Shown here: positions 22,794-48,529 of the stretch, piece by piece
Layout: each line of letters starts with the position of its first letter
How positions within the stretch are numbered: position 1 is the first letter of the stretch
Source of the DNA: a virus
Taxonomy: Duplodnaviria; Caudoviricetes
Strand: one strand, 5' to 3'
IMG/VR virus record: IMGVR_UViG_3300037422_000132
Location: 1 to 63,153 of that record
DNA: 63,153 nt
Made by a program: the position numbers and the translations under genes
The notes under the pieces: model-generated
Seen by the model: only the letters and a program-made list of their open reading frames with translations
Databases searched by the model: none
Told to the model about the DNA's origin: nothing

Positions 22794-25700
22794 CTATCGC
22801 ATGAGTTTAGCTGCCTCTTTCAATGTCAGCCTGCCCTTGCCGGCTGGTTTTTCCTGTGGTTCCCCTTCCGACCGCTTGGCCGCCGCCCGTAGCTGCGCCT
22901 TGGGCGCCTTTAAATAGGTATCTTGATACCATGTGAGCGCCCGCCGGTAGGTGTTCATTTCCTCCGGGCTAAGGGTCTTTAAATATGCGCCCCAATCCTT
23001 TTGGGCAAGGTTGCCAAGCGGGTGCGCCCGCTGGATGGACTTATCCAGGCCCTCGTCGGAGCCCCCCAGCGCATAGTATTGCCGGAGGTATTTCTCGGCG
23101 GCGCCAAGGTCGCCAAATTTCAAGCCCTGCTTGTAGTAATAGAGAGCATTGGATTTGTCGGTCGGCGTGACTCCAGGGTATTCCTTGCCCTTGCTCTCGC
23201 GGTACTTTATGACCTTGCTGATGGTTTCATAGTAAGCCGATTCTCCAGGATCGCTGTAATAGAACCCGATCGCCATGAGGTCGTTGGCAATCCGCTCGCC
23301 GACGTTATCGCCGCGCTTTGGTTTGCCTGTCAGCCATCGGTGGAGCGAATCGGCCGAAAACATACGCGCAACGTGTTCCATTTTGTCCCGGATCGGTCGC
23401 GGGTTGAAGGGGTCCGGGTAAAATGCCTGCTCGGACAAAACTTCGGCGCCCGTTTTCACGTCCGGCCTGAACGCATTGATGATTTTGATTGGGGTGGCCA
23501 AGACGGAATCCTTTGCGATGTCGCCAAACGACTTACGCCCCTTGTAATACGCCTTGGCATCCTGAATAACGTCTTCCATGCCAAACCATGACAGCGCATC
23601 GCTGAACGCCCCCTGAATTCTCAGCGTTCGGATGGTCCCATCCGCCCGGCGCCCAAGGATAAGATGAAGCTGCCGGCGCTGGTCTTCGCTCAACTCGTCT
23701 TCCTCGTCTCCAAAGAAAGTCGCGTTCCAAAGGTTCACGGCTACGAAAAAACCGGAAACCTTGACCCCCAGCTTGGTGGCTTTCCAGGCAACATTTTTGC
23801 CGAATAAGGCGGCAAGCCGGGCCTGGCCGCTGCGCCCCTCGTGGCGGAAGTTGCGCATCAATCGGACGTACCTCGGCAGGTTAATTTCCATCCAGGAATA
23901 GAAGGGCAGTAAATGATCCCGAATGAACTTGCCCGCATGGCTGATGTTGCCGTAATCCCCGATCAACTCCCTGGCCAGCTTTGCCGCTTTCCGATCCGGG
24001 TCCGTGATGCCGTCCACTTCAGCCCGGTTCGATGCTCCGTAAACCGTGTTGCCAGCTGCCACTTGAACCCTGAAATAACGAAAGGCCGCCAGCCGGAGCC
24101 AATTCTCACGGAAACGGGTGAACTCCTTCAGGTTGCGCCAGCCGCGTTTGATGACGTTCGGCCGATCGCCCCGGAGGGCCTCCATCTTCTCCATTAAGGA
24201 AAGGTTCCGCGTAAGCTCTGAAACCTCCTGAAATGCCCATCCAGAATCAAGGACGGATAGCTCATAGGCTAAGTCAAGCTCTTGCTGAAGGGCTTGCGGT
24301 AGCTCTTTCTTGTCACGGTACTCGGTTGTAAGGTCTTTGACAGCATTGAAGAAGTAATGGGTTACAATTTTAGGATCATAGGCGAAAGCGATGTCCATAT
24401 CACCCGATAGGTTATTCAGATTATAGCGAAATACCCGGTACGGATTGACCAAAATCCACTTTTTCCAAGCGCTCATGGCCGCCTTGCTGGCGCGTGAAAG
24501 CTTTTGGTCGTCATGGGCCTTGTCAAAGCCGTCCAGGGTTTGAGCAACCCCTGTCGGGATGATCCAAACGGCATCCCGGCCCCTGGCCAAGACGCGCGTG
24601 ATTTTGTCGGCGTTGTCCTGGCCGATCACCACTTCCCCGGCTTGCACGGCCGCAACGAGTCGATCCGATAGGCTGTAAGCCTTGTACCATGACTTTCCGG
24701 GCGCCGGCTTCCATTCGATATAGCCCTCCGGGATAAGCTTCTTCACGGTCACGAAACGGCTTCCCAGCGCCCCCTTGATATGTTTGTCCCGGTTGGCGAT
24801 CGCCTTTCGGATCGTGCCGGCGTAAACCGCCCCCGGAAGCTGGGCTTTCATCAAGTGGTTGAGGAACGCGAAGAATCGGCTTTGCTCCATCATCGGACCG
24901 CCAGCCGCCCGGCCGCCTGCCGCCAGATCCGTGATAACGTCGTCCCACTCCTGGCCAACCCCAACGAATTTGTTGTCCTTGGCCATCTTGCGAAGCTTGC
25001 TCGTTGCTATGGCGATCGTCTGCTTGTAGGGCTTGAGGGGGTCCATGTCGGTGTCGATGATGTCGTCACCGGTCAAAGGTGGATTTCCGGGATTCAGCCG
25101 GTTGATCCGGTCGGCTTCCAGGTCGTAGAACATTTTCAGATTTTGCCGCTTGGCCTGGGCTTTTAAATTCGCCGCGATGTCCACGAGCGCCCGGATACGG
25201 TCCAGGGTTTCCCGCGTCTCAAGCTGGCTGAACCCCTGGGCCAAAACCTCGAATTCGGATTCGGCATATTCGGTGTTGTAATCGGCCACTGAGCCGACAC
25301 GGCCGATTTGCCATCCCTTGCGCTTCAGCCGCACGTCGTCGGAGCCTACAGAAAGCCCCTCGTAGGCTTCGCCCATCGCCGCTTTGGCCCGGTAAACCAA
25401 GACTTGATGGTGAAAATACCGATCGTCCTGTAAGACGGCTTCCGGCAAAAGGTCGGCGTCTACTAGAGCTCGCTTCATTTTTTCCTGAAACGCTTGGCGC
25501 CGGTCATAGGCGGAACTAATGATCGGGTCACTATCTGAAACCAATTGCAGATAATCCCGATACTGCCGGGCCTCTGCCTCGGTAAACCCGAATGGAAGTT
25601 CGTCCTTGTTCGCCAAGAGCCCGGAATCGATGTCGCGGATCATGTCGTCCATGATGATCCGCAAGCTGAATACCTCGTACTGCTTAGGCTTCATGCCACC

Positions 25701-28700
25701 AACGATGTTCTGCAAAACCTGCATGGCCCGCCGGATCGCGTTATCCGGCCCGTCCTGGTGTGTCCGTAGAACGTCGGCGACGGTCGCCTGTTCCTCAGCG
25801 TCCAGGAAAGGGCGATGCCTGGTCATGCTGTGCCATACGTCCCGGCCATGAATTTGAACCGATTTCAGGAACCCGGCGAAGGGAACCCCCTTCGAGGCAA
25901 CCATTCTTTCCTTAATCTCATCGCGGAGCCCGGCGAACGGGTCGGCCTGGGTGTCTTGCTGAGACGTGACAAACTGGCTCGGCATGGCTGCCCGGAGCGC
26001 TTCTAGATAGGTCTTGGCCACGGGGCTCATGCGTTTGACACTGAAAAGCGGAAAGCCCTTTTCAATCGCTTTGCTGCGCATTTCAGGCGTTACCCGCATC
26101 GACCAAACTTCCATCGGCGGATAAACCCAATTCATTTCCCCGCCCCATAATTCGGCAACCGCCATGCTGCCGTGGCGCCGGATTGCATCCTCGAACGGCA
26201 TCCCGCTCATTTCCATTTCGTCGGCGATCGCTTTCATCTGGTTTTGAAGTTGTACCGACGTACCCCAATTCTGACTTTGCATGCGCAAATCATGCAGGGA
26301 AGGAATTGGCCCGGTGTAGGGTCCAAAATGCGCCGGCCCGGAGCGTCCTAAGTCGATCCCGTAGGGCTCAACCCTGGCATTACCCCACGCTGGTTTGCCG
26401 AAAAGCTTGTTCATTTCTTGCGGCAAATTCACGTTGTAAATGAACTTGTGAAGCTGCCCGCCGATTGAAAGGTCTTTGCCTTTGAGTTCGCCCTCCCGGT
26501 CCTCTATGATTTGCGCGGCAATTTTTTTGCCAAGCACTTCTTCAAGGCTCTTTCCTTTGCCCGGTCCTGAAACGAATCGACCATCCGACACGTTGCCGTC
26601 GAACGTCATTCTGCCTTCTTTATAGGCATGCACCCTGATATGCGATGATCCTTGGAGACTGCGCTCGGCGATGATCCTTTTGGCATCTGCGATCACCCGC
26701 TGGGGCGAATCGTCCCAAATGGTGATTGCCGCGTTGTCGGGGTCTTTGATCCTCCAAAGGTCGCGCCCTATTAGCTTTACGAGCCGATAGCCGGCCGGGA
26801 GTACGTCGTCCGGAAGCTGGGCAATCCCCGGATCGCCCATATGAAGCCATTCAATCCGGTCCACGTTCTGCCGGAGGGCGTCATTGTAACGCTCGATTTG
26901 CTGTTCTCCGGTCGGCCATGCGATCCGGTCAAACCCGTTTTCCGCCGCCCATCGAACCATGCGCTTCATGGCCAGCATCGACCAAGTGATTTTGAAAGGC
27001 GCATCGGGAACCTGCCCGGTAACACTGACAAGCTCCGAATTCATTTCCTCGCGGTAAATTCTCATTTCCTCGTCGGTAAGCTTTTCTCCGGCCTCCGATT
27101 TCGCTATGATCCGCTGATGGACAGGGTTTGCATAACCAAGCTTGCGCCCCTTTTGGTGCCAATCGGATTGAACTTCTTCGATAAATAGGACTTTTTCGGT
27201 CGCCCCCGTGGTATCGTTATGGAATTCCCGGTGGCGGGAGTACTGTGCCGCTTCAAGCTGGGTGATCGCCCCCGCCCTTACGGCCGCCGCCGGCCCGCCG
27301 CTGCCTATGTCGTCCGGGTTTTCGACGCCAACGACCTTGGCGATCCTATTTTCTATGTCCTCGATTTGTTCGATCGTATAAGTGGATTGCTCCCTCTCGT
27401 TGAATCGCATGTGAACGACGATGTTCGGGATACTGTAATGGCTTGAAATGAAGTTGGTGGCTGGGCTTACCCTCTTTGACTCTCGCTGAATTCTGGCGCT
27501 TTCCTCCCTGGCCATATGAGCGATCGCTTCTTCGTCGGTTCCACTGAAACCGAATCTTGTCGCAATGATAACCCCCTCGCTATCCCGGATGCTGATGTCG
27601 CGTTGCCCGGTGTGCTCATAAGTTCTCACCGTGAAAACCTTCCAATCACTTGTGTCAACGGATCCAACCTGCGGGGAAGGGTTTACCGGAATGGACAGGA
27701 CAAGCTCCCGGTAGTTTCTGGCGCCGCCAAACTGATAGCCCGCGTAAATAGCCTTTGGCTCGTCAAGAAGGCTTGCGGCCTCTACGATCATGTTCCTTTC
27801 TTCTGGCCAAATGACGCCTTGCTCAACAAGGTATTCAATGTTGCCTTGGATTTCTTCGTCTGTATCGATTTCCCTCAAGTAAAACCCGATTGAATACCGC
27901 CGGCCGTCCTCGTCACGCCGGTCGCTTGGGATTTTGATGCTCAATGGCTCGGTATCGATTTCGTCGTCGTACTCGATTTGCCATCCGTTTTTCTTGAGGG
28001 CTTTCATGTGGCTTTTCAACTTGGAATCAGCCTCACCATAAATTGTCTCGTGAACGTGGATGTTGTTCAAACTCAGCCAATCAAGCAATTGACGCTTGGT
28101 GATCTTGTCGCCCGGCTCCATCGCCAGCGCATCCGTGACGTGGGACCACTCCATTTCCTCGGCCTTGTATTTCCCTTCTTTTGCCCACTTCGTTATCATT
28201 TTGATAAAATCAGCCGGTCGGCCCGATCCCGGAAGCTTCTCGGAAAGGAAGTCGTGCATTTGGGAATAGAACGGAGAATCGGAGGGTTTCACGACTGACG
28301 GATAAACTTCAGGTTTTTTGTTCGCAAGCCATGCGTCGGTGGCCGCCACGATGTCGTGATCCGCCCCCATGTAGCCGTCATAGGCTTCCCGGAAATACTG
28401 CGCCCGGCTGGCCTCAATCATGGCCCGGTCGAAATTGCCCGCCTCAACGTAGCGCTTGGCCAAAATTTTTGAGACGGCGTAAAATCTCAGCATTTCCTCG
28501 GCGCCGGCCTTGTCTGACTCCTGGCCATACTGCCGCGCTTCCTGGGTGGTGGCAAACTGCGGGGCGCTGGCAAGCTCTGCTTCAAGCTCAGCCGTAGCCA
28601 TATCCTCGCTTTTCTTGATCGACGCCAGGACGGGGCCGGCATAGGGGCGCTGGAGTGTCCGAACCTGCTTGTATCGGATCAACCGCTCAATAGTCTGAAC

Positions 28701-31700
28701 CCCCCGGCTGTCGGTCGGGATGAAATAACGGTATTTGAATTGGACCATTTCTTGAAAGACGCCGTACCCCTGAATGGATCGAAAATCGTAGAAGTCCGGT
28801 CCCACGATTTCAATCCTATCATCGCCGGACAAGTTGACCCGCTTGATTTCCCAACCGTTTACAAGAACCGCCGTGGCGTTGTTCTCAAGGATTTCCCGGT
28901 GTACCTCGGCCGGATCATAGTTGCGTAGCTCAACGGTCACGCCCAAATTTTCCAGGGTTACGGCCAGCAATTTTTCAGGGATAACCCGTCCAAGGATTCG
29001 TTCGCCGTCGTCGGTTTGCATCCGGTAAATGCGCGTGTCTCCCTGGAGACGGTCCCATATCGGCAAAAGGGGCGCGGTCAAAACGTGATGGGTTTCCGTC
29101 CTGGAAGTCGGAAGCGCTTTGAATTCTTCGTTCCAAAGCCGCTCGGCCTGCTCCCGGTCAACTTCCTCCCATTTTTCGCGGTCGGAAAGTACGCCAAGAT
29201 CAACTTGCTGGATAGAGGATTCGGACGGACCCCGGAGGGTCTTGTAAACCACGGTCTGCCCGGCGGAACTTCTTGACCGAACATCGGATGCAACCCAAAT
29301 TCGGCCGGATTTTATGTTACGGTGATACTGAACATCATGGGTCCGATAGTTGAAAAGCCCCTGGCTGGCCTGGAACGTGATATTCTTGGTCGGCTTTTCG
29401 ACTTCAATTTGGATGTACTTGGTTTCGGCCGCCGTAAGTGGATCCACATTGACAGACTGTTCGGATATTTTCCGAACACTCGTTCCACTGATGGTTTCAA
29501 TCCCAACGTCCAGGGTGCCGGCTTCCGCGTGTCGAGTGACAACGGCATCGATTCGCTGAAAGAATTCGTCAAAAATCATGCTCTGCCGCTCAAGAGTCAT
29601 GGCCAGCGCTCGGTTCAAAAACCGTGGGGCACCCGGGAACCCATTGGGTGGAACCTTCTGGCCATTCTCGTCCACAAGCAAAATGCCCGTCTCGGCATGG
29701 AATTGCTGGGGCGTAATCAAAACGTTGCCATCCGGGTCAATAAGCGCCTCGTCCTGAATATCCATTAAAAGCCTGGCAAGCCCTTCCCGTGCGTATTCGT
29801 TTTCGAGGTTATCACGAGCCTGAAAAATCCCCTGAGAGCCGGTCTGCCGCTGGCCCTTGGTCAGCGCTCCAAGCTGATCCAAGCGCCGGGCGATCGTTGA
29901 GATGAAGCGCATTTGGCCCTTGATGTCAGTAGTGACGAGCCAGAACTTTGGTGCCACGGCCTGATTAGAACGGTGCGAACGACCAAGCCCTTGAACAGCC
30001 CGGACAGCGTTCCAACCGGATTGTAACAGGTAGTGAATACGTTTCTGCTGGTTTTTGGAATCAAGATCGGCGTGATAGCTGGCGCCCGTGCCGCCGGCTT
30101 CCGAAAAAATCAAAACCCGTTTTTTGAAGTCCATGAAGGTGGTCGCGTCCTTAACGCTTTTGTCCTTGCTCCACGCCTCTTTCACCAATTTACCTTCATC
30201 GTTGTAAACGAAACGAAACGGACGCGAAGTTACCTCGGCCACATTGTCTTGCCCGAAATGGTGAATAATCATGTCCAGTGGGCTCGTGGGAATTCCCTGG
30301 ATGGTGTTCACGTCGGCAATCAAGGCATCCCGCATTTCAAGGGCCTCCTGGTTGATTACCGGGTTGCCCTCTGAGTCGTAAACCGGACGCATCCTTGTTT
30401 TGCCGTTATCGTCCGTATAGGGCTCATACTGTTGAATGGGAAAGTAGGCCGTTAGGAAGTTGGTCAAAACCTCTTTGGGGCTCAAGTCGAGGTCTTCAAG
30501 TTCCTGGTCTTCCTCCTTGCTATCGTATGCCCGTTTGGCCTGAGCGTTGCCTGTTTTGGTAAGTTGAAAAATAACCGAATGGCCCGCTTCAAGGTCGCGC
30601 TCGGCGCTTTGAATCACGGAGGGCATTTGCATGGCGGTCACGACCGAATCGAAAAAGCGCTGCTGCGATCCCCAAAACATCGACCACATTTGACCCTTTT
30701 TGCCTCCGGTGTGCGCCATCGCATCGTGAATCCCACGGAAAATGTTCTGCCATGCCTCGGCCATTTTGTCGTAAGAGGCCCGTTGCCGGTCGTCCAGAAC
30801 GTGCGTCATGCGATCATATTCAACGTCGTCATACGACAAGGCGCGCGCGATATAGAGCCCACGGGCTTTAAGGTCGCGGGCGATCATCTCCATGCCGGCG
30901 ATCCCGGAACGTAGCAGGGAACCGACAAAACGCATCGCGTTTGTAAAAGCGGTCCCTTCGCCCCACAACCCCAGCCGATCGGCGTACACCAAATTTTCGA
31001 CTTCTACCGCCCCGGTAGCCGACACATAGACGATCCGCGCATTAGGCAGTAGGGTCGATAACAGCATCCCGGCTTGAGCCTGTTTGGCTGGCGGCCTGCT
31101 GCCTCTCGCCCCTGCGGCCGGAGCCAAATTGCGCATGTTGTGCGCTTCGTCGAAAGCGATTACCCCGTCAAAATCACGTCCCAGCCAATCGACAATTTGG
31201 TTTAGTCGGACGGTCATATCATTCAGGCTGGCGGGCTGATCGGGGCGAATGTTTTCAAATTCTTTGCGAAGGGACGCATAGCTGATGAATAGAATCCCTT
31301 CTTCCCTGGTGATCTTCGGCAATGGGGGGACTTCTACCTGTTGCCCGCGTTGCCTCCTGGGCCGTGGCGGTTCCCCCTTCTTACGCTTGGGCTGCTCCGC
31401 GTTCGGGGCTTTAAAGAGGATTTTGCGCCCGTGTTCCCAACCGATCCCGGTAATGCGCCGCTTGCCGGTATTCGGATCTTCTTGTTCCCCGTACAGATCG
31501 CGGGCCGCATCTTTTCTAAGGTCCGGCTTTTCCGAAACCCAAACCGCCTTTTTCCGGCCGCGCAAGTAGTTCTCCCAAATGATCGCCCCTATTTCGCGCC
31601 CCTTGCCCACGCCGGTCCCGTCGCCGATGAAGAAGCCACGGCGCCGGCCATCGGGCAAAACCACTTCAAACGACTGATTGGAATAGACGATCGCCTCGAT

Positions 31701-35762: not shown

Positions 35763-35953
35763 TAGGCTTCCTCCAAGGCAATCATGATGATGGGAATGAG
35801 TTCCATAAGTTCTTGGTCGTCAATTTCCAGGTAGTCATAAGGGGCTTGCCCAAAGCCCTGGGCATCGCGCTTCGGCTCCGGGCCAATGGCGATAACCGGC
35901 GGAAAATAGACGGGGGCAAAGTAGTTGCCAGCAAAATAACTTCTCGGAAACAT
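35762..35953 (-). CDS. Small cassette protein with YF repeats and a DDxEL hydrophobic tail
   Basis: SYFAGNYFAPVYFPP..DDQELMELIPIIM; TAATG overlaps on both sides. Confidence 0.7.
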   Translation of the reverse strand: MFPRSYFAGNYFAPVYFPPVIAIGPEPKRDAQGFGQAPYDYLEIDDQELMELIPIIMIALEEA

Positions 35954-37107
35954 TACAGGTCGAGTGTTACCGTTAGCCGGTTGCCGCTGGAGTCAACGGC
36001 CGCCGTGATGATGTCTTTAGTGTCCTCCAAATCCCTGATTTTCACAAGCGACGTGCCGGCCCCGGACAGCTTGCCGGCAAGGGCCGCCGTGATGACCTGC
36101 ATTAACTGTGATGCCGTGATGGTGCCGCCAATCAGGACATTCGACCAAACCGTATTGGCCACTTCCGCCTTTTCTGTGTCGTTCATGGCTGCGAGCACAT
36201 TGGCGAACTCGAAATTGAGTTGATCCGTTTTCGCCCGGATCGCCGCCACGTCGGCGGAAATTTGGTCGTCGGTGCTGATTTTTTCAAAGCTGACCCAATC
36301 AAGATGCAAGACGTGGGTGGCAATATAAGTGCCGACGCTATGAAGAAAACGAAGCTGCATTTCTCCTGTCGATGGGTCATGGTACTCGGAGCCAAGCGGA
36401 ATAACGTAGTCAAACGGGGTGAGCCGCGTGAGCATGGTTCCGCGAGTCGCCCACGAATCGGTTACATAGTTGTATGCCTGAATGGAAATCGTGTGACCGG
36501 ACCCACCGATATAGACGCCTGTAATCCGGCAAAGAGAGGGCGCTTCATCCGTGTCGCTGGAATCGACCGTTACCACGACCTCAATGCCCGGAGATATGGA
36601 AAGTTCCCCGGTTGACATGCGAACATCGTCGAGGGCCGCGAGGTCGCTAACGTCGCCCCCATCATTGTCTCCCGAAACCCTGGTCGCGCTGGTCGGAGCG
36701 TAGGAAGTCGGTCCAACGGGCGCCGCCCCGCCGCCATCCGTGGAGAAGGAAATGGCCTGAACGGGCTGCTGGTAGTTGATCCGCACAATGTAGCTTCCCG
36801 TCGTGTTGACAAACGGATCGCCGGCGCCGTCCACCAACAAGATACCGTCAGTGATATTAAGGGTATGGTGCGCTTCCTGCGGCTTTATGCGCCATCCGTT
36901 GAGCATGAACGCATAAATCGGGATTTTGGTGCCAGCGCCAGGGTCGATGTCGTCGCCCCCAAGGTTTGAGAAGGCCGGCAGGTATTTCGAGTTGTCGGAC
37001 AACGCAACCCAATCCGCCCACCGGCTCCATACGTCCCGGACGCTCATATCGGTTGTTCCCAAACTGAGGTTGATCCTCTTGTTTGGGCCATCAAAGGTGT
37101 AGGCCAC
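35953..37107 (-). CDS. Virion structural protein (fibre or spike cassette)
   Basis: Beta-rich; N-domain resembles that of the upstream 540-aa protein; C-terminal ALAGKLSGAG..DSSGNR. Confidence 0.65.
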   Translation of the reverse strand: MAYTFDGPNKRINLSLGTTDMSVRDVWSRWADWVALSDNSKYLPAFSNLGGDDIDPGAGTKIPIYAFMLNGWRIKPQEAHHTLNITDGILLVDGAGDPFVNTTGSYIVRINYQQPVQAISFSTDGGGAAPVGPTSYAPTSATRVSGDNDGGDVSDLAALDDVRMSTGELSISPGIEVVVTVDSSDTDEAPSLCRITGVYIGGSGHTISIQAYNYVTDSWATRGTMLTRLTPFDYVIPLGSEYHDPSTGEMQLRFLHSVGTYIATHVLHLDWVSFEKISTDDQISADVAAIRAKTDQLNFEFANVLAAMNDTEKAEVANTVWSNVLIGGTITASQLMQVITAALAGKLSGAGTSLVKIRDLEDTKDIITAAVDSSGNRLTVTLDL

Positions 37108-37118
37108 GAGCCCCCCCC

Positions 37119-38741
37119 CTATACCAAGTAAGCGCGATCCGTTTCAGCCGTCAAGGTAATGGAAATGGCCTTGCTTTGCGTGATCGTCCCGGTGGCCACG
37201 ACCGGCTTCGCGCTGCCGGGGTTGCCGGCCACGACCGTGACCTCCGCGTCGGTGCCGGGGGTCCGGCCGCCCTGGTTGTTATTCGAATAGTCGAAGGTAA
37301 ACGCGATCTGTGCGGCGCTGATCGTCCCGGCGATGTCCACGGCGTCCTTGTCGTCCACCGTCACGGCCCCGGACTCGCCATAATCGTTGCCGGCGCCGGG
37401 AAGGGTCGTGAAAAACGCCCGGTAATAACCGCCCACCAGGTTGGCGCTGAAATTGAGGTTGCCCGCTGAAGCGTAGGGGTACTCGCGCGAGGTTCCCGTG
37501 TTGTCCCAAAAAACGATGCTGTTAAGATCGGCCGCCCGGATCCCCTGCACCAGCACGCCGGTCCCGCCGCCGTTGGGGTTGGTCGGCGTGTAGAACCCGC
37601 ACTTGAGCGAATCGCCGACGAAGTTGAGCAACAGCCCGGCCGTGGCCCCGGTCACGCTCCCGGACACCGCGTTGATGTTGGAGTTCTGCCGCAGCAGGTA
37701 CTGAATCTTGGTGTAAATCTCGGCGAGGGTCGCCGACACAGGCGTTGCCCGTTGCGCCGTGAAGGACAGGTTCGACCCGCTGGCGATCGTGCCGGTGACG
37801 GTAATCGTGGTCGCCGTGTTGCTCACGATCGGAAAGGTGACATTTTTATCGCTGCCCTCATAGATGGTGAGCACGCCGCCCGCGAACTCGTTGACGGCCA
37901 TGGCGCTGCCGGCGCTGGTCAGCACCGAGGCCCCGCCGGGGGCTGAACCGTCCACGCCGGAGTTGGTACCGACATCGATCACGATGCCGAAGCTGCGGCT
38001 CGTGGACGAATCGACATCGCGGGTGAACGCCTGCCCGAAGTATTTGACGTCGATTTCTGTGAACGGCGCGTTGGCCGCCACGTTGATGTCGGTATCCTCG
38101 ATGTTGAGGTCCGCGCCCACCGCGATCGGCAGCGCGACCTTGTAGGCCCCGGTCGCGGTTTCGCCGACATCCCCCAGGATCGCATCGTCGTAGAGGTATT
38201 GATATTCGCGGCAGAAAAGTTTGAAAAAAGCGCGCTCGTCGAAATTACCGTTGCTCGCATCCCCGTAGACCTGGATCGCCTCGTTCGGCGCGTCGGTGAA
38301 GGTAAAGTTCGCTTTGGCCCCCGTGCTGGTGCGCTGGTAGTAGAACTGCGCCCCGGTCGGGAACCCGGAGGCGAGCGCGACCATGCCGACGTACTGGCGG
38401 TTCAGCACCCCGGCCACACTGTATTCACTCCAGCCGGCATCGCGGATCATCTGCCGGGTCGCGTCATTGCTCGGTTTCCACCCGGTATATTTTCCGCCAG
38501 GATCCTGGCCGAAAACGTACTGACCGGACCGGGCGTCGAGGACGTTCATCGGAAAGTCAAACGGCTGATACGTCGTGCCGCTGGACCAAAGGTCAATGAA
38601 TTTGGCCCAAAGGGCATTCCCGGTCACGCCGTCTTTGGCGACCAGGTTTCCGGCCACGTTCAGCGTGAACGTCTTTGCGCTTGTATCCATGGTCAGCTCG
38701 GTGCCAACATTGAGATCATCGGGGTCTACGATCTTGGCCAT
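37119..38741 (-). CDS. Virion structural protein (fibre or spike cassette)
   Basis: Thr/Gly/Ala-rich beta protein, AGGAGG RBS. Confidence 0.65.
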   Translation of the reverse strand: MAKIVDPDDLNVGTELTMDTSAKTFTLNVAGNLVAKDGVTGNALWAKFIDLWSSGTTYQPFDFPMNVLDARSGQYVFGQDPGGKYTGWKPSNDATRQMIRDAGWSEYSVAGVLNRQYVGMVALASGFPTGAQFYYQRTSTGAKANFTFTDAPNEAIQVYGDASNGNFDERAFFKLFCREYQYLYDDAILGDVGETATGAYKVALPIAVGADLNIEDTDINVAANAPFTEIDVKYFGQAFTRDVDSSTSRSFGIVIDVGTNSGVDGSAPGGASVLTSAGSAMAVNEFAGGVLTIYEGSDKNVTFPIVSNTATTITVTGTIASGSNLSFTAQRATPVSATLAEIYTKIQYLLRQNSNINAVSGSVTGATAGLLLNFVGDSLKCGFYTPTNPNGGGTGVLVQGIRAADLNSIVFWDNTGTSREYPYASAGNLNFSANLVGGYYRAFFTTLPGAGNDYGESGAVTVDDKDAVDIAGTISAAQIAFTFDYSNNNQGGRTPGTDAEVTVVAGNPGSAKPVVATGTITQSKAISITLTAETDRAYLV

Positions 38742-38754
38742 TTAAAAAATCCTC

Positions 38755-41421
38755 CTAAGCAAGATAGAATCGGTCCACTACCTGTGAAATCGGTACGCTC
38801 GCGTCCGCGTTGCTCTTGGTGTAGGCGCGAATGTAAAACGGCACATAGCCCGCCTTGAAAATACCTATGTCGATCGAATTGCCCGCCTCGCTCGCCGGGT
38901 AGTCGTAGACGTAGGACGTGCCGGCGAGATCCTGCGAGGACTCGATAACCGTGGTGGTTCCCGCCTCATAAATTACAATGTCGCTGCCCGTGACGATCGG
39001 AGTGATGGTGAGGTTACGGGCGTTTACCACGGTCACGGTGGCGCCGGCCGTGCGGATGCTGGGGGTCGATCCGCCTCCGGTTATGCTGATTTGCATGGTC
39101 CCCGATCCGATGTTGACGTAGATCGCCTCGTTGCCGGTGCTGCCGTCGCTCGCCGCGTAGCCGCTGAACTGGCAGCCCTCCAGGCTGAAATCCGCCGCGC
39201 TGCCGGAAATCTCGATGGCATGTTGCGTTCCGGTGGTCTTCGTAAAAGCACATCTCTTGATCTTGGCGGCGTTCGCGGGCGACGATGCCGCGATCTTGGT
39301 ATTGGTGAAGCTGCAATCCTCTATCTCGGCCCCGTTCTGCGTGAACACCGGGCAGTTGATAAAGGCCATGTTGGCGAATGCGGTGTTCAGGTCGCGCAGG
39401 GTGACGTTGGCGTTGATGACCGTGCAGCCGGTGAAGTCGATGGTTGCGTTGGCGGCCGTCGAGGCGTCCCACTCCCAGCGGTAGCGGCTGGGGCTGGTGA
39501 AAACGGAGTTGGTTATTTTGATGGAGTCGCCGCTTTTCGGGTAGAACTTGACGCCGGCCACGTCCTCGGCCGCGTTCCAGCCGAAATTGTTCTGTCCGTC
39601 ATACCGGGTCGGGAACTGGAAGGTGTTCAGGTCGCAACTGATCGCCACCGGGTCCCCGCCGCCGAATTGTAGCGGCGCCCAAATCAGCACCGCCGCGCCC
39701 GATTGTTGGATGTGCGGAAACAGGCCGACGCAGTTGTTGGCCACATAGGCGATGTCGTCCAGATTGAGAGGCAGCGCGGCAGTCCCGCCGGCCACGCCGA
39801 TCCGCGTGACCAAGTTCAGCATGGACCACTGCACGGCCGCGGCCCCGAACTGGCCGAGGGTGGACAGATACGCCCGCGTGACCGCGCTTTTGTTGACGCT
39901 GCCTCTCGTCGCCCATGGCGCCGCCGATCCGTTCCAGTCGATCGCCCACACCGATCTGCCGTCGAGATCCAGGTTTTTGCATCCGCGCGCGCCGATTTTG
40001 TACGATGCATAGTTGAGGTTCGTGTCCATGAGCGTGACCTGGACCCCGCCCGCGTAGTTGACCGGCAGCCCGATGTCCACCGCGAAGTCCCGCGCCAGTA
40101 CCGGCCGGATCGTGCCGAGAATGATGCCGGTGTCCATGTCGAGCGCGGCGCCGAACAGAATTTCCGGCCCATTCAAAGTGGTGGTCGAGGACGCGCCGGC
40201 ATTCTGACAGGCATCCGTATAGGGGTTGGTCCCTCCATCGCCGGCGGCCGACGCCACGATGTAGGCCGCCGGGTGCCCGTTCGCCCGGCCCTGCGACACG
40301 ATGACCGCCGTGGTGTAGGCCGTGCCGATGTTGGCCCGCACCCAATACTTGGTCACGCTGTTCACGGAAACCTGGGCCATCGCCGCTTTGATGGCCGCGC
40401 CGAAGTCGAGCCGCTGCCAGCCGGTCGCGGCCAGGTTGTTGGTCGGCATCCCCGTTGAGGACCATACGGCCCCCGTGTAGTACTCCCAGGCGATCGTGCC
40501 GGTGACTCCCGCGGTCGATACGTTCAGCATCAGGATCTGCCAGGGTGAGTCGAACCCGAAATAGACGAAATCGGTTCCGGCCGTCGGAAACGTCACATCG
40601 GCCGCCGTGGGGTTGTTGAGGGCGGTCAGGATGCTGGTGAACACCCCGGGACCGACATCCGTATAAGCGTCCGTGAAATCGGCGCCGATGGCCGTCAACT
40701 GCACGGAGGTCGGCCATGAATCGCCGAACATGGTGCCGAGCCCTACCAGCGGGCGCAGATGGGTGGCGGCGCTGACGGCCGGGTCGGAATAGCGCGGCAC
40801 GCTCGCCCCGCTCGAACCGTCCTTGACCGCGACCACCACGCCCCGGCCGTCATCGTTGCCCCGGCCGAACCACGAGGCCGCCGCAACGGCGCCGGCTGCT
40901 TTCTGGAACGTATAGGCAACCGCTGTGCTGTTGGCCCCGTTGTCGCCGGCGTGCAGATTGACCAATGGTGGATAAGCGGTGGGGCTAAGGCCGGAGTCGG
41001 TGAACCAGGCATGCAGGATCAGGCAATTGGTTTCGGCCCCGGTATTGCTCGATGGGCCGTCAAAGGGCATGGCCGTGTCGTCGCCTGCGCTCTCGGCGCT
41101 CGCGGCAATCGGTGTAGATGTCGGCGCGCCTTCGATGGAGACCACCACGACATTCCAGTTTTCGGTGGTGGGGGTGGTCAGCGTCAAAGCCTCTGCCGCG
41201 CTCGCGGCCACTTTCCACCCGCACCGATACGCCGCGCCGGCCGAAACGCCGTCCTGCAGGCTCGTCCACCCGGCGGCGGGGTCGTTCACGACCGGGGTGC
41301 CGTCCTTGCTGGCGAAATACAGCAGCAGGTCGTTCGCCTGATGGACCGGCATGTTGCAGACGAGCGAAGCCGTGGTCGCCGTGCCGTACTCTGTAACTGC
41401 GAAGTCGCGGATCTTGGCCAT
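38755..41421 (-). CDS. Tail spike or fibre-like protein with C-terminal beta-helix
   Basis: Repeating FTGCT/AFINC/EDCSF/KRCAF/EGCQF rungs; Ala/Gly/Thr-rich. Confidence 0.7.
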   Translation of the reverse strand: MAKIRDFAVTEYGTATTASLVCNMPVHQANDLLLYFASKDGTPVVNDPAAGWTSLQDGVSAGAAYRCGWKVAASAAEALTLTTPTTENWNVVVVSIEGAPTSTPIAASAESAGDDTAMPFDGPSSNTGAETNCLILHAWFTDSGLSPTAYPPLVNLHAGDNGANSTAVAYTFQKAAGAVAAASWFGRGNDDGRGVVVAVKDGSSGASVPRYSDPAVSAATHLRPLVGLGTMFGDSWPTSVQLTAIGADFTDAYTDVGPGVFTSILTALNNPTAADVTFPTAGTDFVYFGFDSPWQILMLNVSTAGVTGTIAWEYYTGAVWSSTGMPTNNLAATGWQRLDFGAAIKAAMAQVSVNSVTKYWVRANIGTAYTTAVIVSQGRANGHPAAYIVASAAGDGGTNPYTDACQNAGASSTTTLNGPEILFGAALDMDTGIILGTIRPVLARDFAVDIGLPVNYAGGVQVTLMDTNLNYASYKIGARGCKNLDLDGRSVWAIDWNGSAAPWATRGSVNKSAVTRAYLSTLGQFGAAAVQWSMLNLVTRIGVAGGTAALPLNLDDIAYVANNCVGLFPHIQQSGAAVLIWAPLQFGGGDPVAISCDLNTFQFPTRYDGQNNFGWNAAEDVAGVKFYPKSGDSIKITNSVFTSPSRYRWEWDASTAANATIDFTGCTVINANVTLRDLNTAFANMAFINCPVFTQNGAEIEDCSFTNTKIAASSPANAAKIKRCAFTKTTGTQHAIEISGSAADFSLEGCQFSGYAASDGSTGNEAIYVNIGSGTMQISITGGGSTPSIRTAGATVTVVNARNLTITPIVTGSDIVIYEAGTTTVIESSQDLAGTSYVYDYPASEAGNSIDIGIFKAGYVPFYIRAYTKSNADASVPISQVVDRFYLA

Positions 41422-41858
41422 TACTTATCCTCTCGCTTCACCGTGACCTTATTCATGCGCCCGTACCCGTCTCGGTGGATGGTGAGCTCTAGAGCGTCCC
41501 AATTGGCCCGCTCAACATGCACGACCGGGGCGGCCACGTTGACCGTCGGCGCCGGGGCTCCGGCCATTTGACGAGCGATCGACTCCAATCCCTTTCGAAT
41601 GAGGTCGTTCAATTCGACCACACGCGCCATGACCGCCGCCATCGACCGGCCGGCATCCGGGTCCGGCCGATTGGCCGTCTCGATCACTTTCAAGGTTGAC
41701 GCTTGCAATTCACCCAGCTTTGAAATCGACTCGGAAATGGCCCTTAGAATGTCCTCCGGCTTGGGGGGCTCCGGCGGCTTCTCATCGGCCAGCCGAACAA
41801 CCTTAATCCGGCCGGAATCGATTTCGCCCTGATCGACTTTTTCTAGGAATTTAGGCAC
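41421..41858 (-). CDS. Cassette lead protein (helical region, APxVxV repeats, RDxxGR hairpin)
   Basis: GGAGG RBS, GTG start overlapping the upstream gene end. Confidence 0.7.
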   Translation of the reverse strand: MPKFLEKVDQGEIDSGRIKVVRLADEKPPEPPKPEDILRAISESISKLGELQASTLKVIETANRPDPDAGRSMAAVMARVVELNDLIRKGLESIARQMAGAPAPTVNVAAPVVHVERANWDALELTIHRDGYGRMNKVTVKREDK

Positions 41859-44800
41859 TCCAATAACCTCCGGGCAAAATCAAGCTGTTTTTCGTTCTCG
41901 GCTAAGGCAACGTCGGCCTTTTCCTTGACATGGTAATGGTTGCCCTGAGAATCCACCGCCGGGACAGAAACCTCGATTTCAGCAAGCCTTTCCTGGCGCC
42001 CTTTTTCGATGAACGCATCTTTGGCCTCTTGGCGCCTGGCTCTTTGATCTGCCAAAAAGGTTGAGTTCATAGCATCATGCCAGAATGACGCCGTACCCCA
42101 GCCGCCGCCCTCTGGATGCTCAGTTGAGTTGATCCGCTTTTTTTCTTCGTCGGTGAGGGCGTCGGTAAACTGAATCCCGTTGCTGTAGAAAAGCGCCTTG
42201 ACAGCCAAATCCTGAAGACTTTCTGGAATCTCAATCGGCGGCTTGGGTTTCGGTAACCCTTTGCGCAACCGTTCGGCCGTCTCCGGGTCCACCTCTTTCC
42301 ACCCGCGTTCCTTGGCGTACTCGGCAAGGGCCGCTTCGGCTTCCTCCCTAGTGTCAAACCATCGATCGATGCCGCGCATCCGGGTGCCGGGCTTTTTGTC
42401 GGGCTTGTGGCTCCTGAAAAAGCTAAAGTTTCCCTGCGGGCCTTTGGCCACATGGACGATTTTATCCGCCCGCTCGTCGTAGTAGCGCGCTCCCTGCTTT
42501 GGCTCCTGGGCCTTGCCCTCTAAGCCGGAAATCATGGCTTCAAGACGGGCGATCGCCGGGCGCATGGCCGCTTGATGGGCGTCTGCTTCAACGAAGCTGT
42601 CGCCGTGCTCCAGGCTTTTTTGAGCATATTCCAAAAGCTGAGTCAGCCCGGCCTTTAGCGCTTGCTCCCTGGTGTCGAAATGCCGATCACGGACGCTCGG
42701 ATAGCTGCCGCCGCCTTCATGCGAACCATAGAGCCTTCCGTACTCGACCCCATAAACCCATTTATTGTCAGCCGATTGGGCCAAGTAGACCTTGAATTTC
42801 CACTTCGGCGCCTTGCGGGTGTCTTCAATCCCCACGGTTTCCGGCTTGGTGTAAACGCCATGCTCGTTCAGGTGATAGGGATTCGAGGGATGGTTGCCGT
42901 AAACCTGTGCTGCGGTTTCGCGGGCGAAGGAATCAACGAGGGAATCCTCATCGGGGTAGGCATTCAGGACGTTTTCCATGCTCCCAAGCTTGTCCACGCG
43001 CTGCCGGATAAAAACCCTCTGCTCCGTGCTCAATCCCTCTGGCTGTGTTTCAGGCTTCTCCGTCCTACCTTTTGGCCCTGTTTCAGTAGGCTTCTTTGGG
43101 GCCGTCGTTTCCTTGCGGTACTTGGCAACAAGCTTTTCTAATTGATACAACGCCTTGGATGGGCTTTCCTCGGCCGTCTTGCTCTTATAGTAGAACTCGA
43201 CCGCTTTTTTCTCATCATCGGTCAATTCGTTGAAATAGGCATCAAGCCGGGCCTTGGCCTTCTCTTTTTTGGTCTGAGGCGGTTTTTTGAGTTCTTCGCT
43301 GGGCTTTTCGGGCTCGATGACCGGCTTTTCTTCCTCCCTTGGCTTCTCCTGGGGCTCTTTGGCGGGCGCTTCCCCCTCGGTGGCCTCTACTGGCTTGCTC
43401 TTGTCGAAGTCTTCGGCTGAAGGCTCTCTACGGTCCTCTGCCTCTGACATTTTGCGGATTTCGGGCCACGACTTTCCTTGATCGAGCATTTCAGGGTTAT
43501 CGGCCAAAACCCGGCGCATAGCTTTTTCAACGTCGGCCTGTTGCTCCGGTGGCACGACACGATCCAGCCATGCCTTAAAATGGGCCTCCGTGTCCTCGTC
43601 CATATTAAACGTTGTTTCACGGGGAACTTTTTGCTGCGGCGGGGGCTCTTTGGGCGCAATTTTTTGATCGTAGTCGCTCGGCCCCATGTCCTCCGGTATG
43701 CCTTCGTCCAGGATTTCACCAATGGTTTTGGACTTGGGCTTCTTTTCGCGCCGGATGAATTCATTGAAAGTTTCAGCCAATGCGTCCTGAACGGCATTGA
43801 TGTCCCGGTAATAGCTGGCATTTGCGATTTTCTGACCGCGCAAGCTTTTCCTGATTTTTTCAATAAGTTCGGTTACGATTTTCGCTATTTGCTGCGCGAT
43901 GGTCGGGTCTTTTTCGTTAAGCTTTTTCCAAAATTCCGGGTTGGTGAATTGCTGGCCGGCGAAATCGGCCATGTATTCGTAACGTACTCGCGGATCATCG
44001 GCCGCCAAGGGTTGAAGACCGGCTTTCTGGCGCCCGGCGTTTTCATCGGCAAGGAACGCTTCAAACTTGGTTGCAAGCCCATCGGTGGCCGCGCTCATCT
44101 TCTCCCAAAGATCGGGATACTCGGTGTGCATGCGGTGAAAGGTTTCATGGCCAAGGATCGTCAAATACGGCTTAGAGGTTTTTTGGTTGACAAAAATCGT
44201 TCCGGTCTGCGGGTCATAGGCGCCGTTGAACCCGTTAAGCTTGGTGTCTTTAGGCGCTTTGAAAAAGGCCGTCTTTACGCCGATCGCTGCCGCTACCCGC
44301 TGGATCGACTCGATTTCAGGGGTCATGTCGGCCGCTTCGGCTTGCTCGGCGTCCGGGACATGCGGCCCCAAGTAGGTCTTTAGAGCTACAATGTCCTCGT
44401 CGGTTGCTGCCCGCACGGGCGCCGCCGGCTCCGTTCCGGGTGCCTCGCTGGCCTGTCGGACGGTAATGGCGCTGTCCCAAATTTCAGGCGTCGGAGGGTT
44501 AGCCGCGTCGTAATCATCGACCATTTTTTGAAGACGATCGCGCACGGGGTTCCCCTGGGCCATTTGCGCAATCATTTCGTTCAGGTCGTCGGTGTTGATA
44601 TTGCCCGATGTGAAATTGGATTCAATCTCATTCATCCACCGATCGATTACCGGCTGAATAGCCTCCCTGGCCTTTTGCTCTTTGCCTTTGGCGGTAAGCT
44701 TGCTGGCCGCCGACGTTCCGGCGCTGGCGAGCAAACCCATAGCCGCCGTGTTGATAAGAGTCTGAGGGGCAACCTCGACCAAGGCATCCGTGAAACTGAG

Positions 44801-45967
44801 GGCGCCCGGACGTAGTCCGTACTTGGCTTCGATCGCTGATTGCTTGGTGGCCGTCCACGCCTCCGTGAGCATTTCCTCGGTCAGCATGGCTCCGGCTTTC
44901 GCAACCGGAACCCCCAGCTTGAAAGCCAAATTCTTTCCGGCCGCCGCCGCGATCCGCTCACTGATTTGGGCAAGAGTCGATTTGACCCCCAGCTTAGCCA
45001 TTTGGGTCGTACCGAATTTGCCAGCGCCCGCAATGCCCATCGTAAGAAGGTTTCCCACGGTTTCCGGGAAGGCTTCCCAAAGGCCGTACAGGTTGGCATC
45101 CTGTTCAAGCTCTTTGTAAATTTCGGTCCAAAGCTTTTCGTTTTTGGGGTTGATGTCGGGAAAGTCTTTCTTGAACGCCTCGTAGAAAATATCGATGAAT
45201 TGATCCTTGGAAGCACCAACGGATGTCGCCGTACCTCCAATCAAGCCGCCTGCCGTCGCACCGACAAGGGGAAGGGTGGCGCCGCCGGTCGTCGGAGCCA
45301 AAACAAGCCCGGCCGTCATGCCGGCCGCCGCGCCGGCCCCGGTCGAAAACATATTTGCAATCGAATAGGCGATGTTCTGAGGCGCGTCCTCGGCATCGCC
45401 ATAGGTCACCTTTTGCCCGGTAAAGGGCATCGTGAACCATGTCTTTTTACGGTCTTCCTCGCTGAGAACCTTGGCTTTTTTCCCCTCCAGCCGGTTTTCC
45501 TCGATCCAGTTGTCCAGCCATCCGGTTTCCAGGGTCTTGCGCCCGGATCGGATCGACCGACCCACGGTTTCGGGCAAAGCGTCGGTGAGCATGCTCGGAC
45601 CCTGGCGAAGAAGCGCACCAAGCCCACCGACAAAGGTTCCACGGGTTTTAAGTTCCGGGTCGTTTCGGTCCCAAACCGCCGCCATGTTCTCGCCCGTGAT
45701 TGTATCCACGTTGTCGATATAGCGATTTGGATGGGTTTCTTTCTTAAACTGGCTCGGCCAATGGTAGGACGCCGACATTTCATCCCATTCAGGGGATATA
45801 TTGGCCTGATAAGCGGCGCGATAATCGTAATGATGCTCAGGGGCATCCGGGTTTTGGTCCAACCCGATCGTTCCAGCCCATCGGCCATACCAATCCTGAA
45901 AGCCGCGCTCGTCAAACTGATTGCCCTCGTAGGGGACTTCGGGCTCTTGGCGTTCTTCATCGATCAT
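41843..45967 (-). CDS. Large ejection/polyvalent protein, 1374 aa, with zincin-like metallopeptidase domain
   Basis: Gly/Ala hydrophobic membrane-type segment; NGAYDP..IFVN..GHETFH..EYMAD; N-terminal YDYRAA..HWPSQFK..HP domain. Confidence 0.8.
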   Translation of the reverse strand: MIDEERQEPEVPYEGNQFDERGFQDWYGRWAGTIGLDQNPDAPEHHYDYRAAYQANISPEWDEMSASYHWPSQFKKETHPNRYIDNVDTITGENMAAVWDRNDPELKTRGTFVGGLGALLRQGPSMLTDALPETVGRSIRSGRKTLETGWLDNWIEENRLEGKKAKVLSEEDRKKTWFTMPFTGQKVTYGDAEDAPQNIAYSIANMFSTGAGAAAGMTAGLVLAPTTGGATLPLVGATAGGLIGGTATSVGASKDQFIDIFYEAFKKDFPDINPKNEKLWTEIYKELEQDANLYGLWEAFPETVGNLLTMGIAGAGKFGTTQMAKLGVKSTLAQISERIAAAAGKNLAFKLGVPVAKAGAMLTEEMLTEAWTATKQSAIEAKYGLRPGALSFTDALVEVAPQTLINTAAMGLLASAGTSAASKLTAKGKEQKAREAIQPVIDRWMNEIESNFTSGNINTDDLNEMIAQMAQGNPVRDRLQKMVDDYDAANPPTPEIWDSAITVRQASEAPGTEPAAPVRAATDEDIVALKTYLGPHVPDAEQAEAADMTPEIESIQRVAAAIGVKTAFFKAPKDTKLNGFNGAYDPQTGTIFVNQKTSKPYLTILGHETFHRMHTEYPDLWEKMSAATDGLATKFEAFLADENAGRQKAGLQPLAADDPRVRYEYMADFAGQQFTNPEFWKKLNEKDPTIAQQIAKIVTELIEKIRKSLRGQKIANASYYRDINAVQDALAETFNEFIRREKKPKSKTIGEILDEGIPEDMGPSDYDQKIAPKEPPPQQKVPRETTFNMDEDTEAHFKAWLDRVVPPEQQADVEKAMRRVLADNPEMLDQGKSWPEIRKMSEAEDRREPSAEDFDKSKPVEATEGEAPAKEPQEKPREEEKPVIEPEKPSEELKKPPQTKKEKAKARLDAYFNELTDDEKKAVEFYYKSKTAEESPSKALYQLEKLVAKYRKETTAPKKPTETGPKGRTEKPETQPEGLSTEQRVFIRQRVDKLGSMENVLNAYPDEDSLVDSFARETAAQVYGNHPSNPYHLNEHGVYTKPETVGIEDTRKAPKWKFKVYLAQSADNKWVYGVEYGRLYGSHEGGGSYPSVRDRHFDTREQALKAGLTQLLEYAQKSLEHGDSFVEADAHQAAMRPAIARLEAMISGLEGKAQEPKQGARYYDERADKIVHVAKGPQGNFSFFRSHKPDKKPGTRMRGIDRWFDTREEAEAALAEYAKERGWKEVDPETAERLRKGLPKPKPPIEIPESLQDLAVKALFYSNGIQFTDALTDEEKKRINSTEHPEGGGWGTASFWHDAMNSTFLADQRARRQEAKDAFIEKGRQERLAEIEVSVPAVDSQGNHYHVKEKADVALAENEKQLDFARRLLECLNS

Positions 45968-48028: not shown

Positions 48029-48529
48029 CTATGGCCTGTTCGCTGCCGGCAGGTTTAATTGTGACCGTCGAATAGCCGCCTTCCTGGCCCTGGCTTGTTT
48101 TGCGGCGGTATCGAAAAATTCTTCAAGGTTGTAATCTCTGGCCTCATCCAGCAAGGGCCGCTCGGAATAAATCTCGTTTCCGCACCCTATCAGGTCGGCG
48201 CATTGCCAAACGCATTGGTATGGCCCGCCCACTTGAGCCCTGGGGCTGTGGTTTACTGGAAGTAAATTCATAATCAAACCACAATCGGCGCAACGTCGGC
48301 CGTGCATCTTCAGGTATTGCCGACTCTCTAAAAGCCGCTTGCCCGCTTCGATTTGCTGCCATTTGTTTTCCAGAACCGTCTGATTGATCCGCTCAACGTA
48401 CTCATCGACCGTCCAGCCGTTTGCTTGAGCGATTCGCATTACATGAGCCGCGTCCTGTAAAATACCGGGTCGAAATGCAGCAAAAACCCTATCAAAAACG
48501 TCCTTTTCAATCATCAAGAGCACCGCCAT
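48029..48529 (-). CDS. Zinc-ribbon-containing hypothetical protein
   Basis: CADCG..WQCADLIGCG. Confidence 0.65.
   Translation of the reverse strand: MAVLLMIEKDVFDRVFAAFRPGILQDAAHVMRIAQANGWTVDEYVERINQTVLENKWQQIEAGKRLLESRQYLKMHGRRCADCGLIMNLLPVNHSPRAQVGGPYQCVWQCADLIGCGNEIYSERPLLDEARDYNLEEFFDTAAKQARARKAAIRRSQLNLPAANRP

Follow-up and report, generated by a model that had tools for sequence, protein, structure and literature searches.

Two single-cysteine end modules recur together on giant, presumably internal proteins of uncultured phages

The 63,153-bp sequence IMGVR_UViG_3300037422_000132 (hereafter the window, meaning the whole stretch analysed) is a complete phage genome according to its IMG/VR record and encodes a portal of the P22 type along with a major head protein and a terminase. 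Here we describe two very large proteins of this phage, each of which keeps a single cysteine (Cys) close to one end: a polyvalent-type giant of 4322 amino acids (aa), assigned from domain searches and its Cys count (22794..35762, minus strand, co-stranded with the late genes), and a 1374-aa protein of internal or ejection type, assigned from its Cys count and composition (41843..45967, minus strand). The two residues lie in short terminal modules, one at the N-terminus of the giant (N-module) and one at the C-terminus of the 1374-aa protein (C-module), and these modules recur as a pair in other phages. The two proteins probably clip together head-to-tail inside the virus particle, as has been seen once in the cyanophage A4.

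The sole Cys of the 4322-aa protein is C7 (MGGLKFCLDK; codon 35742-35744), and that of the 1374-aa protein is C1371, fourth from the end (...RRLLECLNS-stop; codon 41855-41857). Both counts and their coordinates had been given in an earlier note on this sequence and were exact on computational recount, as was its statement that the 424-aa and 259-aa proteins encoded upstream have no Cys at all. These two presumed internal or ejection proteins (45972..47246 and 47236..48015, both minus strand) adjoin the 1374-aa gene on one side, and a 145-aa open reading frame (ORF), also with 0 Cys (41421..41858, minus strand), adjoins it on the other. Together, the five proteins contain 2 Cys in 6,524 residues, compared to 192 in 14,136 (1.36%) for the other 58 window ORFs, a background rate obtained with a crude longest-ORF caller. 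Under a binomial model, a count of at most one Cys has a probability of 1.3e-24 in the larger protein (4322 aa) and of 1.4e-7 in the smaller (1374 aa), and by simple arithmetic the odds of both single residues falling so near those ends are roughly 5e-6 (~7/4322 × 4/1374). The earlier note had described the two termini as facing each other. This holds in transcription order only: the genes are not neighbours, being separated by five same-strand ORFs (145, 888, 540, 384 and 63 aa; ~6.1 kb), the 888-aa one of which contains 12 Cys.

The N-module occupies residues 1-65 of the giant (35568..35762, minus strand; delimited by profile search and alignment). Three of the 12 relatives found with the first 400 residues of the 4322-aa protein, as well as P0002, start with this module and carry a single Cys at position 7. 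A profile of the module (alignment A1) was searched against 1.84 billion representatives at an expectation (E) value of at most 1e-3 and returned 102 matches, 101 of which start within the first four residues of the protein; the match in P0083 is internal and probably false. The module spans ~60 aa with the consensus M-x-[ST]-L-x-x-C-L-K-K-x-G-L-x-x-H-E-A-A-I-L..., and a Cys stands at position 6 or 7 in 98 of the 102 proteins, all but P0083 and three short entries. Conservation around it is highest for L at -3 (94/98), L at +1 (85), E at +10 (80), G at +5 (72) and K at +2 (68), and the Cys codon is TGC at seven and TGT at two of nine loci. Seventy-five of the 98 proteins have no other Cys, and among the N-module proteins of at least 1000 aa (n = 56), 42 have one Cys, seven have two and seven have three to nine, so that outside the module Cys makes up only 0.04% of residues (55 of 136,959). 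Past approximately residue 65 the architectures diverge: ten sampled proteins continue with LPD39, ART-PolyVal, InPase, strawberry-notch helicase, RadC or PRTase domains, or with nothing known. Pfam holds no model for the N-module, and a protein atlas search gave no usable match.

Searches for relatives of the 1374-aa protein were nearly empty, and the C-module was therefore found only by inspecting the DNA upstream of N-module genes. A word-index search with the whole protein gave two matches among 8000 scored candidates (P0001, in the N-terminal 78 aa, and P0002, in a region with an HExxH motif); residues 1050-1374 as query gave no relatives, the protein had none among cultured phages (blastn and tblastn), and searching viral contigs with its full length also returned none. 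DNA around N-modules was fetched, and seven contigs, including the window, had enough context for upstream inspection; L005 and L006 were left out of this set, showing no partner in just 4.5 kb and 0.4 kb of upstream sequence. The C-module comprises the last ~50 aa of its protein, a β-hairpin followed by an amphipathic helix that ends in ...LL[ED]CLxx-stop, with G, A, A and C invariant in all nine aligned sequences. In the window it was delimited by alignment as the last 60 aa (41846..42025, minus strand), and the C-module proteins of the other contigs match the 1374-aa protein nowhere else.

All seven contigs encode both modules, and in each case the module Cys is the sole Cys of its protein or fragment. 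The window pairs its 1374-aa protein, ending ...ECLNS, with the 4322-aa giant (C7). The corresponding pairs are 1371 aa (...DCLNT) with at least 3394 aa (C7) in G003/L002, 1116 aa (...ECLKS) with 3607 aa (C7) in G004/L003, 941 aa (...ECLAS) with 1303 aa (C7) in G001, 873 aa (...ECLG) with at least 775 aa (C7) in G002, 1079 aa (...ECLSS) with 2494 aa (C6) in G005, and two fragments (...ECLAS; C7) in L004. The two genes lie ~2-6 kb apart in the other six contigs. Using hidden Markov models (HMMs) of the modules, we found exactly one N-module and one C-module in each of six contigs (window, G001, G002, G003, G004 and L004), two complete genomes included, and in the seventh, G005, each profile matched once. 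The earlier note had named joint conservation of the two terminal residues as a test, and this is what we observe: the N-terminal Cys is present in 98 of 102 homologues and a sole C-terminal Cys, 3-4 residues from the end, in all seven contigs.

With tblastn, 23 window ORFs were compared to six of the other contigs. Four contigs had matches to the first ~54-112 aa of the giant and two to its internal domains; the 1374-aa protein was matched over its last 33-53 aa, again in four contigs. Beyond these, G003 had counterparts of two fibre ORFs, and a weak match (E 9e-4) was obtained with one small ORF, while the capsid, portal and terminase of the window had no match in the six contigs, an empty answer that proves little with this tool. 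Both modules thus stay together while the remaining protein parts and the virion genes diverged or were exchanged beyond recognition. Elsewhere, too, the upstream core ORFs lack Cys: those of G002 are 543, 794 and 363 aa long and those of G005 are 967 and 371 aa long.

All module-bearing members are uncultured. A scan of contigs with the C-module alignment (A3) found only one contig, already in the set. Of two DNA patterns searched against genome contigs, the first gave no match and the second a single contig from a Betaproteobacteria metagenome-assembled genome (MAG), carrying the same element as G005. This IMG/VR provirus (L029/L030) corresponds to G006 contig 17 (L024/L026/L028) and sits on a 311,814-bp contig of that MAG; in a class-level sample of 400 scored genomes (G254 is an additional, unscored one), that MAG alone had the module. 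The provirus is the sole hint to a host for the module group. In a MAFFT alignment of N- and C-module fragments (A6), the two kinds of module were superposed (L-x-x-[IH]-E..., G, A-x-x-A-[LV]). We judged this alignment to be misaligned and did not use it; the overlay may be an artefact or a faint sign of kinship between the two modules.

Some proteins carry a Cys at both ends. Thirteen N-module proteins have exactly two Cys, and in six of them the second lies 1-4 residues before the C-terminus. In P0043, P0067 and P0110, one Cys is in the N-module and the other 2-4 residues before the end of a recognizable C-module; P0110 (159 aa) consists of an N-module, a linker and a C-module, and nothing else. 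Three further proteins, P0017, P0019 and P0085, end in ...LIEDCA or ...LEINCD (P0017 had no match among viral contigs). The earlier note had expected the terminal Cys to be lost in fused homologues, and in a small sample it is: in longer proteins that contain the terminal region of P0017 or P0019 as an internal segment, the Cys position is occupied by L (P0040) or S (P0014). The alignment with P0053 stops just before the position of the terminal Cys.

Structure prediction was applied to the two termini of the window pair and to P0110. Co-folding the last 60 aa of the 1374-aa protein (alignment A5) with the first 65 aa of the 4322-aa protein (A4 alignment) gave a score of 0.53 (runs 0.55, 0.53 and 0.53), whereas the best of three controls scored 0.00. 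Of 80 solved complexes, 58 reach the mark used for this score, as do 2 of 110 mismatched pairs. The runs had at least 83% of their contacts in common, and the partner had a predicted local distance difference test (pLDDT) value of at least 78, versus 52-58 in controls. The co-fold suggested in the earlier note thus scored above its controls, at a level graded as weak support. An AlphaFold2 model of P0110 had a mean pLDDT of 82.7 and a predicted template modelling (pTM) score of 0.67, despite a low-confidence linker of ~45 aa. In this model the N-module forms helices at residues 4-10 (with the first Cys), 15-30 and 35-64, and the C-module forms strands at 117-123 and 130-136 followed by a helix at 137-158 (with the second Cys); the pTM suggests that both modules are placed against each other. 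Foldseek found no PDB entry similar to the model at E ≤ 0.001, with V-ATPase stalk and prefoldin-like coiled coils ranking first (E 0.64), and the module profiles matched only unrelated PDB chain sequences, all at E > 0.1.

The closest structural precedent comes from the A4 cyanophage virion, in which cryo-electron microscopy (cryo-EM) resolved a disulfide between gp27 Cys1715, in a C-terminal helix inserted into its partner, and gp26 Cys5 (PMC12002296; PDB 9K2V). In the A-4L record (KF356198), gp27 (1717 aa) and gp26 (1114 aa) each have a sole Cys, C1715 and C5, and gp29 has none. Like the 1374-aa protein (C1371/1374), gp27 is a large internal protein with its only Cys by the C-terminus (C1715/1717), and like the giant (C7/4322), gp26 has its only Cys in the first ~7 residues (C5/1114); gp29, a smaller upstream core protein, is Cys-free, as are the 424-aa and 259-aa ORFs of the window. 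The partners differ in kind, gp26 being an all-alpha structural layer of 1114 aa and the window protein a multi-enzyme polyvalent protein of 4322 aa. A4 gp28 (1058 aa; L021 25321-28497) has two Cys only, C1036 and C1039, in a C-x-x-C near its C-terminus. The available text of the A4 study does not describe the bond as conserved or modular. In the main text of the literature searched, a pre-ejectosome disulfide was found only in that study and a description of the module pair nowhere.

A second comparison is provided by the ejected proteins of Schitoviridae (N4 gp50-52; DEV gp71-73), in which Cys suppression has been ascribed to passage via the disulfide-forming periplasm (PMC11445570). Direct counting gave 0 Cys for N4 gp50, gp51 and gp52 (3500, 644 and 150 aa), bearing out the earlier note's remark that proteins threaded out of the virion can be Cys-free. 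The window set resembles this operon in its Cys suppression (2 of 6,524 residues against 1.36% elsewhere). However, the Schitoviridae proteins keep no Cys at all and hence have no terminal pair, and N4 gp50 is a virion RNA polymerase whereas no RNA polymerase family was found in the 4322-aa protein with Pfam or PHROGs.

Domain searches instead place the giant with the polyvalent proteins. It contains AAA_34 at residues 1315-1666 (E 3.9e-101) and Helicase_C_4 at 1828-2090 (2.3e-79), which together represent a strawberry-notch-type helicase, as well as DUF6908 at 169-252 (6.7e-8) and a methyltransferase-like region at 694-834 (methyltransferase PHROG, 2.6e-9). Relatives found with its first 400 residues have domains of the polyvalent class, and LPD39, ART-PolyVal and InPase occur among relatives. 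Because of these domains and those of its relatives, we regard the 4322-aa protein as an anti-defence cargo that is presumably injected and belongs with the polyvalent proteins described by Iyer et al. 2017 (PMC5512222), a family predicted there to be packaged and delivered with the DNA. The likeness extends to the size and multi-domain build of the chain, its place beside structural genes, and a strawberry-notch/SNF2-type helicase, a methylase-like region and DUF6908. As in that family, at least two distinct enzymatic or effector domains lie in one very large chain, encoded beside structural genes in a phage with a portal and a terminase. Unlike the described families, it has an N-terminal Cys module and a C-terminal partner without a Pfam family, and by term search the words 'cysteine' and 'disulfide' are absent from the main text of PMC5512222. 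From gene position and Cys depletion we infer that the 4322-aa protein is packaged in the capsid and delivered to the host.

The 1374-aa protein belongs to no Pfam family. Stretches that are rich in Gly and Ala and moderately hydrophobic occur at residues ~200-260 and 300-425. Residues 16-93 (window 45689-45922) share 55% identity over 78 aa with the beginning of P0001, which is 2243 aa long and has 0 Cys, and residues 19-98 also match a Cys-free ORF next to the C-module gene in G005; this N-terminal domain looks like a second small domain common to these internal proteins. An HExxH motif (LGHETFH) occurs within residues ~550-740 (window 43750-44320), a region with 28% identity over 191 aa to P0002, which is 1747 aa long and begins with a variant of the N-module (MANLSNCLKIHFG) that holds its sole Cys. 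This region may be a zincin-like peptidase domain of a kind common in polyvalent proteins, although Pfam gave no match.

A further conserved feature is found where the C-module gene ends. In six of seven contigs, the NTG start codon of the next gene is formed by the last base of the Glu or Asp codon and the TG of the Cys codon, and is followed by CCN (Pro). In the window, the GTG start of the 145-aa ORF (41858-41856) lies over the Cys1371 codon, and the small downstream ORFs begin with MP[KRV].... The dual-coding junction is 16-17 nucleotides (nt) long (window 41843-41858; L002 4347-4362; L003 ~3433-3448; equivalents in G001, G002 and G005). Shine-Dalgarno-like purine runs are present 9-13 nt upstream of the overlapping start, inside the C-module coding sequence, and the Cys codon is TGC in all seven contigs. 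L004 retains the C-terminal Cys (...ECLAS-stop) without the overlap. The conserved junction implies translational coupling.

Taking these observations together, we consider it somewhat likelier than its negation that the C-module and N-module are head-to-tail docking modules that recruit cargo 1:1, are locked by a disulfide outside the cell and are freed by reduction. Polyketide synthases and nonribosomal peptide synthetases offer an analogy, in that short C- and N-terminal docking modules order giant polypeptides head-to-tail, although those proteins are unrelated, cytoplasmic and without a cysteine lock. In the proposed sequence of events, the C-module of the 1374-aa protein would dock onto the N-module of the 4322-aa cargo inside the capsid. 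In the oxidizing surroundings outside the cell, the two sole thiols would form an intermolecular disulfide. The linked thread would recruit the cargo to the internal core 1:1, and the cargo would follow the ejection protein through the tail. With a chain end no more than 3-7 residues away from either Cys, the joined pair would be nearly linear and could pass the channel in order. Reduction in the cytoplasm would then free the cargo. Of this scheme, docking is predicted, while we infer the disulfide, a virion location for both proteins, the towing and the release. Doubtful is the wider idea that the module pair forms a portable, cargo-agnostic coupler, in which a terminal disulfide would join any protein with an N-module at its head to the C-module of the ejection protein; that both-ended linkers such as P0110 chain three or more polypeptides into a redox-cleavable string, which would pass the tail in a fixed sequence and be released by reductants of the cytoplasm; and that the same design arose, or persisted past recognition, in A4-like cyanophages.

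Several points weigh against disulfide-locked docking. Assembly takes place in the reducing cytoplasm, so that any disulfide must form after release. Twenty-three of the 98 N-module proteins have further Cys (up to nine), and the short entries P0091, P0093 and P0116 bear T, S or A in place of the Cys, so neither the single-Cys state nor the module Cys itself is absolute. The seven contigs were ascertained through the N-module partner, and the dual coding at the junction could inflate conservation of the C-terminal Cys and the last few residues. With co-fold scores of 0.60 or below, the mark was reached by only 7 of the 80 solved complexes, but by both of the mismatched pairs that passed. The gp27 and gp26 genes of A4 are adjacent on one strand, whereas five ORFs intervene in the window; tblastn of 23 window ORFs against A-4L gave no match, nor did the module HMMs against its six frames at E ≤ 1. 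Because no sequence similarity was detected, we treat A4 as a structural precedent and analogy, not as a member of the family. Finally, no relative of the N-module was found among cultured phages and plasmids. The Cys bridge proposed in the earlier note is therefore upheld in part: the terminal pair is co-conserved and A4 shows an analogous disulfide, but the genes are not neighbours, the co-fold support is weak and the C-terminal Cys codon overlaps a start codon in six of seven contigs.

Other explanations concern what the two thiols do. It is possible, if unlikely, that the modules dock while the Cys residues hold a metal ion (for example Zn) between them, aided by the conserved His/Glu in the N-module (xHEAAI) and by the acidic residue that precedes the C-module Cys, or that docking is non-covalent with the thiols lining the interface. 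A His at +9 from the N-module Cys in 53 of 98 proteins, a Glu at +10 in 80 of 98 and an E or D before the Cys in all seven contig C-modules would suit such a site, and a reducing assembly compartment, three Cys-less N-modules that retain the fold signature and docking predictions that are silent on bond type are all compatible with it. Yet the His is absent from about half of the N-modules and from P0002-type variants, one Cys per side makes a weak metal site, and the only solved analogue (A4; PMC12002296) has a disulfide. Rather less probable, in our estimate, is that the two Cys act independently, in homodimer bonds or with a third virion component such as the portal, and co-occur through one shared internal-core design. 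The window portal does have a single Cys in 721 aa, co-occurrence does not say which thiols pair, and the co-fold support is weak. Nevertheless, proteins with both modules have Cys at the two ends only, P0110 is predicted with both modules at high confidence (pTM 0.67), the hetero-complex passes, if weakly (0.53 versus 0.00 for controls), and the A4 bond is heterotypic, C-terminus to N-terminus.

It is improbable that the C-terminal Cys is a tolerated by-product of the overlapping NTG-CCN start, with the N-terminal Cys having an unrelated role, for example in the processing or modification of a leader that targets the protein to the capsid. The overlap in six of seven contigs, the TGC codon in all seven and the Shine-Dalgarno-like purines 9-13 nt upstream speak for this explanation. 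Against it speak L004, which keeps ...ECLAS-stop without the overlap, conservation of the C-module over ~50 aa, far past the junction, and the residue before the Cys, which stays acidic although the start varies between ATG, GTG and TTG; it also leaves the 1:1 pairing, the both-ended proteins and the A4 bond unexplained.

Four other candidates were rejected. A chance origin of the terminal pair is ruled out by the Cys depletion statistics and the N-module survey counts. The tails past the Cys, of only 1-6 residues, are too short for the halves of a split intein or for protein ligation; a lipoprotein lipobox does not fit proteins without a signal peptide; and CaaX prenylation, with a Cys at -4, is at odds with bacterial hosts and a Cys position that varies from 1 to 4 residues before the end.

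The genes around the pair show additional features. Between the two large genes, the 888-, 540- and 384-aa ORFs (35953..41421, minus strand) are presumed tail fibres outside the Cys-free set, judging from GC content and likeness to G003/L002. The presumed fibre block (window 36000-42000) has a GC content of 0.60-0.63 versus ~0.55, and the 540- and 888-aa ORFs are 36-50% identical to ORFs of G003/L002 alone, which suggests that the block is a swapped host-range cassette. On the ORF reading, the stop of the last intervening ORF (63 aa, Cys-free; 35762..35953, minus strand) abuts the start codon of the giant gene, and its product has an acidic run followed by an amphipathic hydrophobic stretch at the end, as in ...EIDDQELMELIPIIMIALEEA and ...DDLMLAAMAFTILRRAA. 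By eye, a similar motif precedes the N-module gene in all seven contigs examined, on an ORF of 63-72 aa or the tail of a fibre-like protein (window 35762-35953, minus strand; L002 9783-10001; L003 8485-9309 and L005 3302-4585, at their ends; and, in G001, G002 and G005, small frames directly ahead of the N-module gene). At the other end of the set, the 424-aa and 259-aa ORFs matched no Pfam or PHROG family, and immediately upstream of them Cys content changes sharply: a 166-aa ORF (48029-48529, minus strand) has 5 Cys (3.0%) and a 436-aa ORF (48514-49824, minus strand) has 18 (4.1%), both without known family.

It was known beforehand that ejected phage proteins shed Cys, and one cryo-EM study had seen a single disulfide between the ends of ejection proteins. 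Within the literature searched, what is new is the two sequence-defined modules, their spread over ~100 clusters at 50% identity, a common leader for diverse polyvalent cargos, and the both-ended linkers. These results suggest that the A4 disulfide is no curiosity, as a module pair with one invariant Cys each recurs in ~100 protein clusters, across phages with unrecognizably different capsid genes, and heads very different anti-defence enzyme cargos. If true, docking through these modules would explain how giant cargos come to join the internal core and then exit the capsid in sequence, and it would provide a testable rule of one N-module per C-type end. It would also supply a short tag with which foreign proteins could be packed into phage particles and carried into bacteria.

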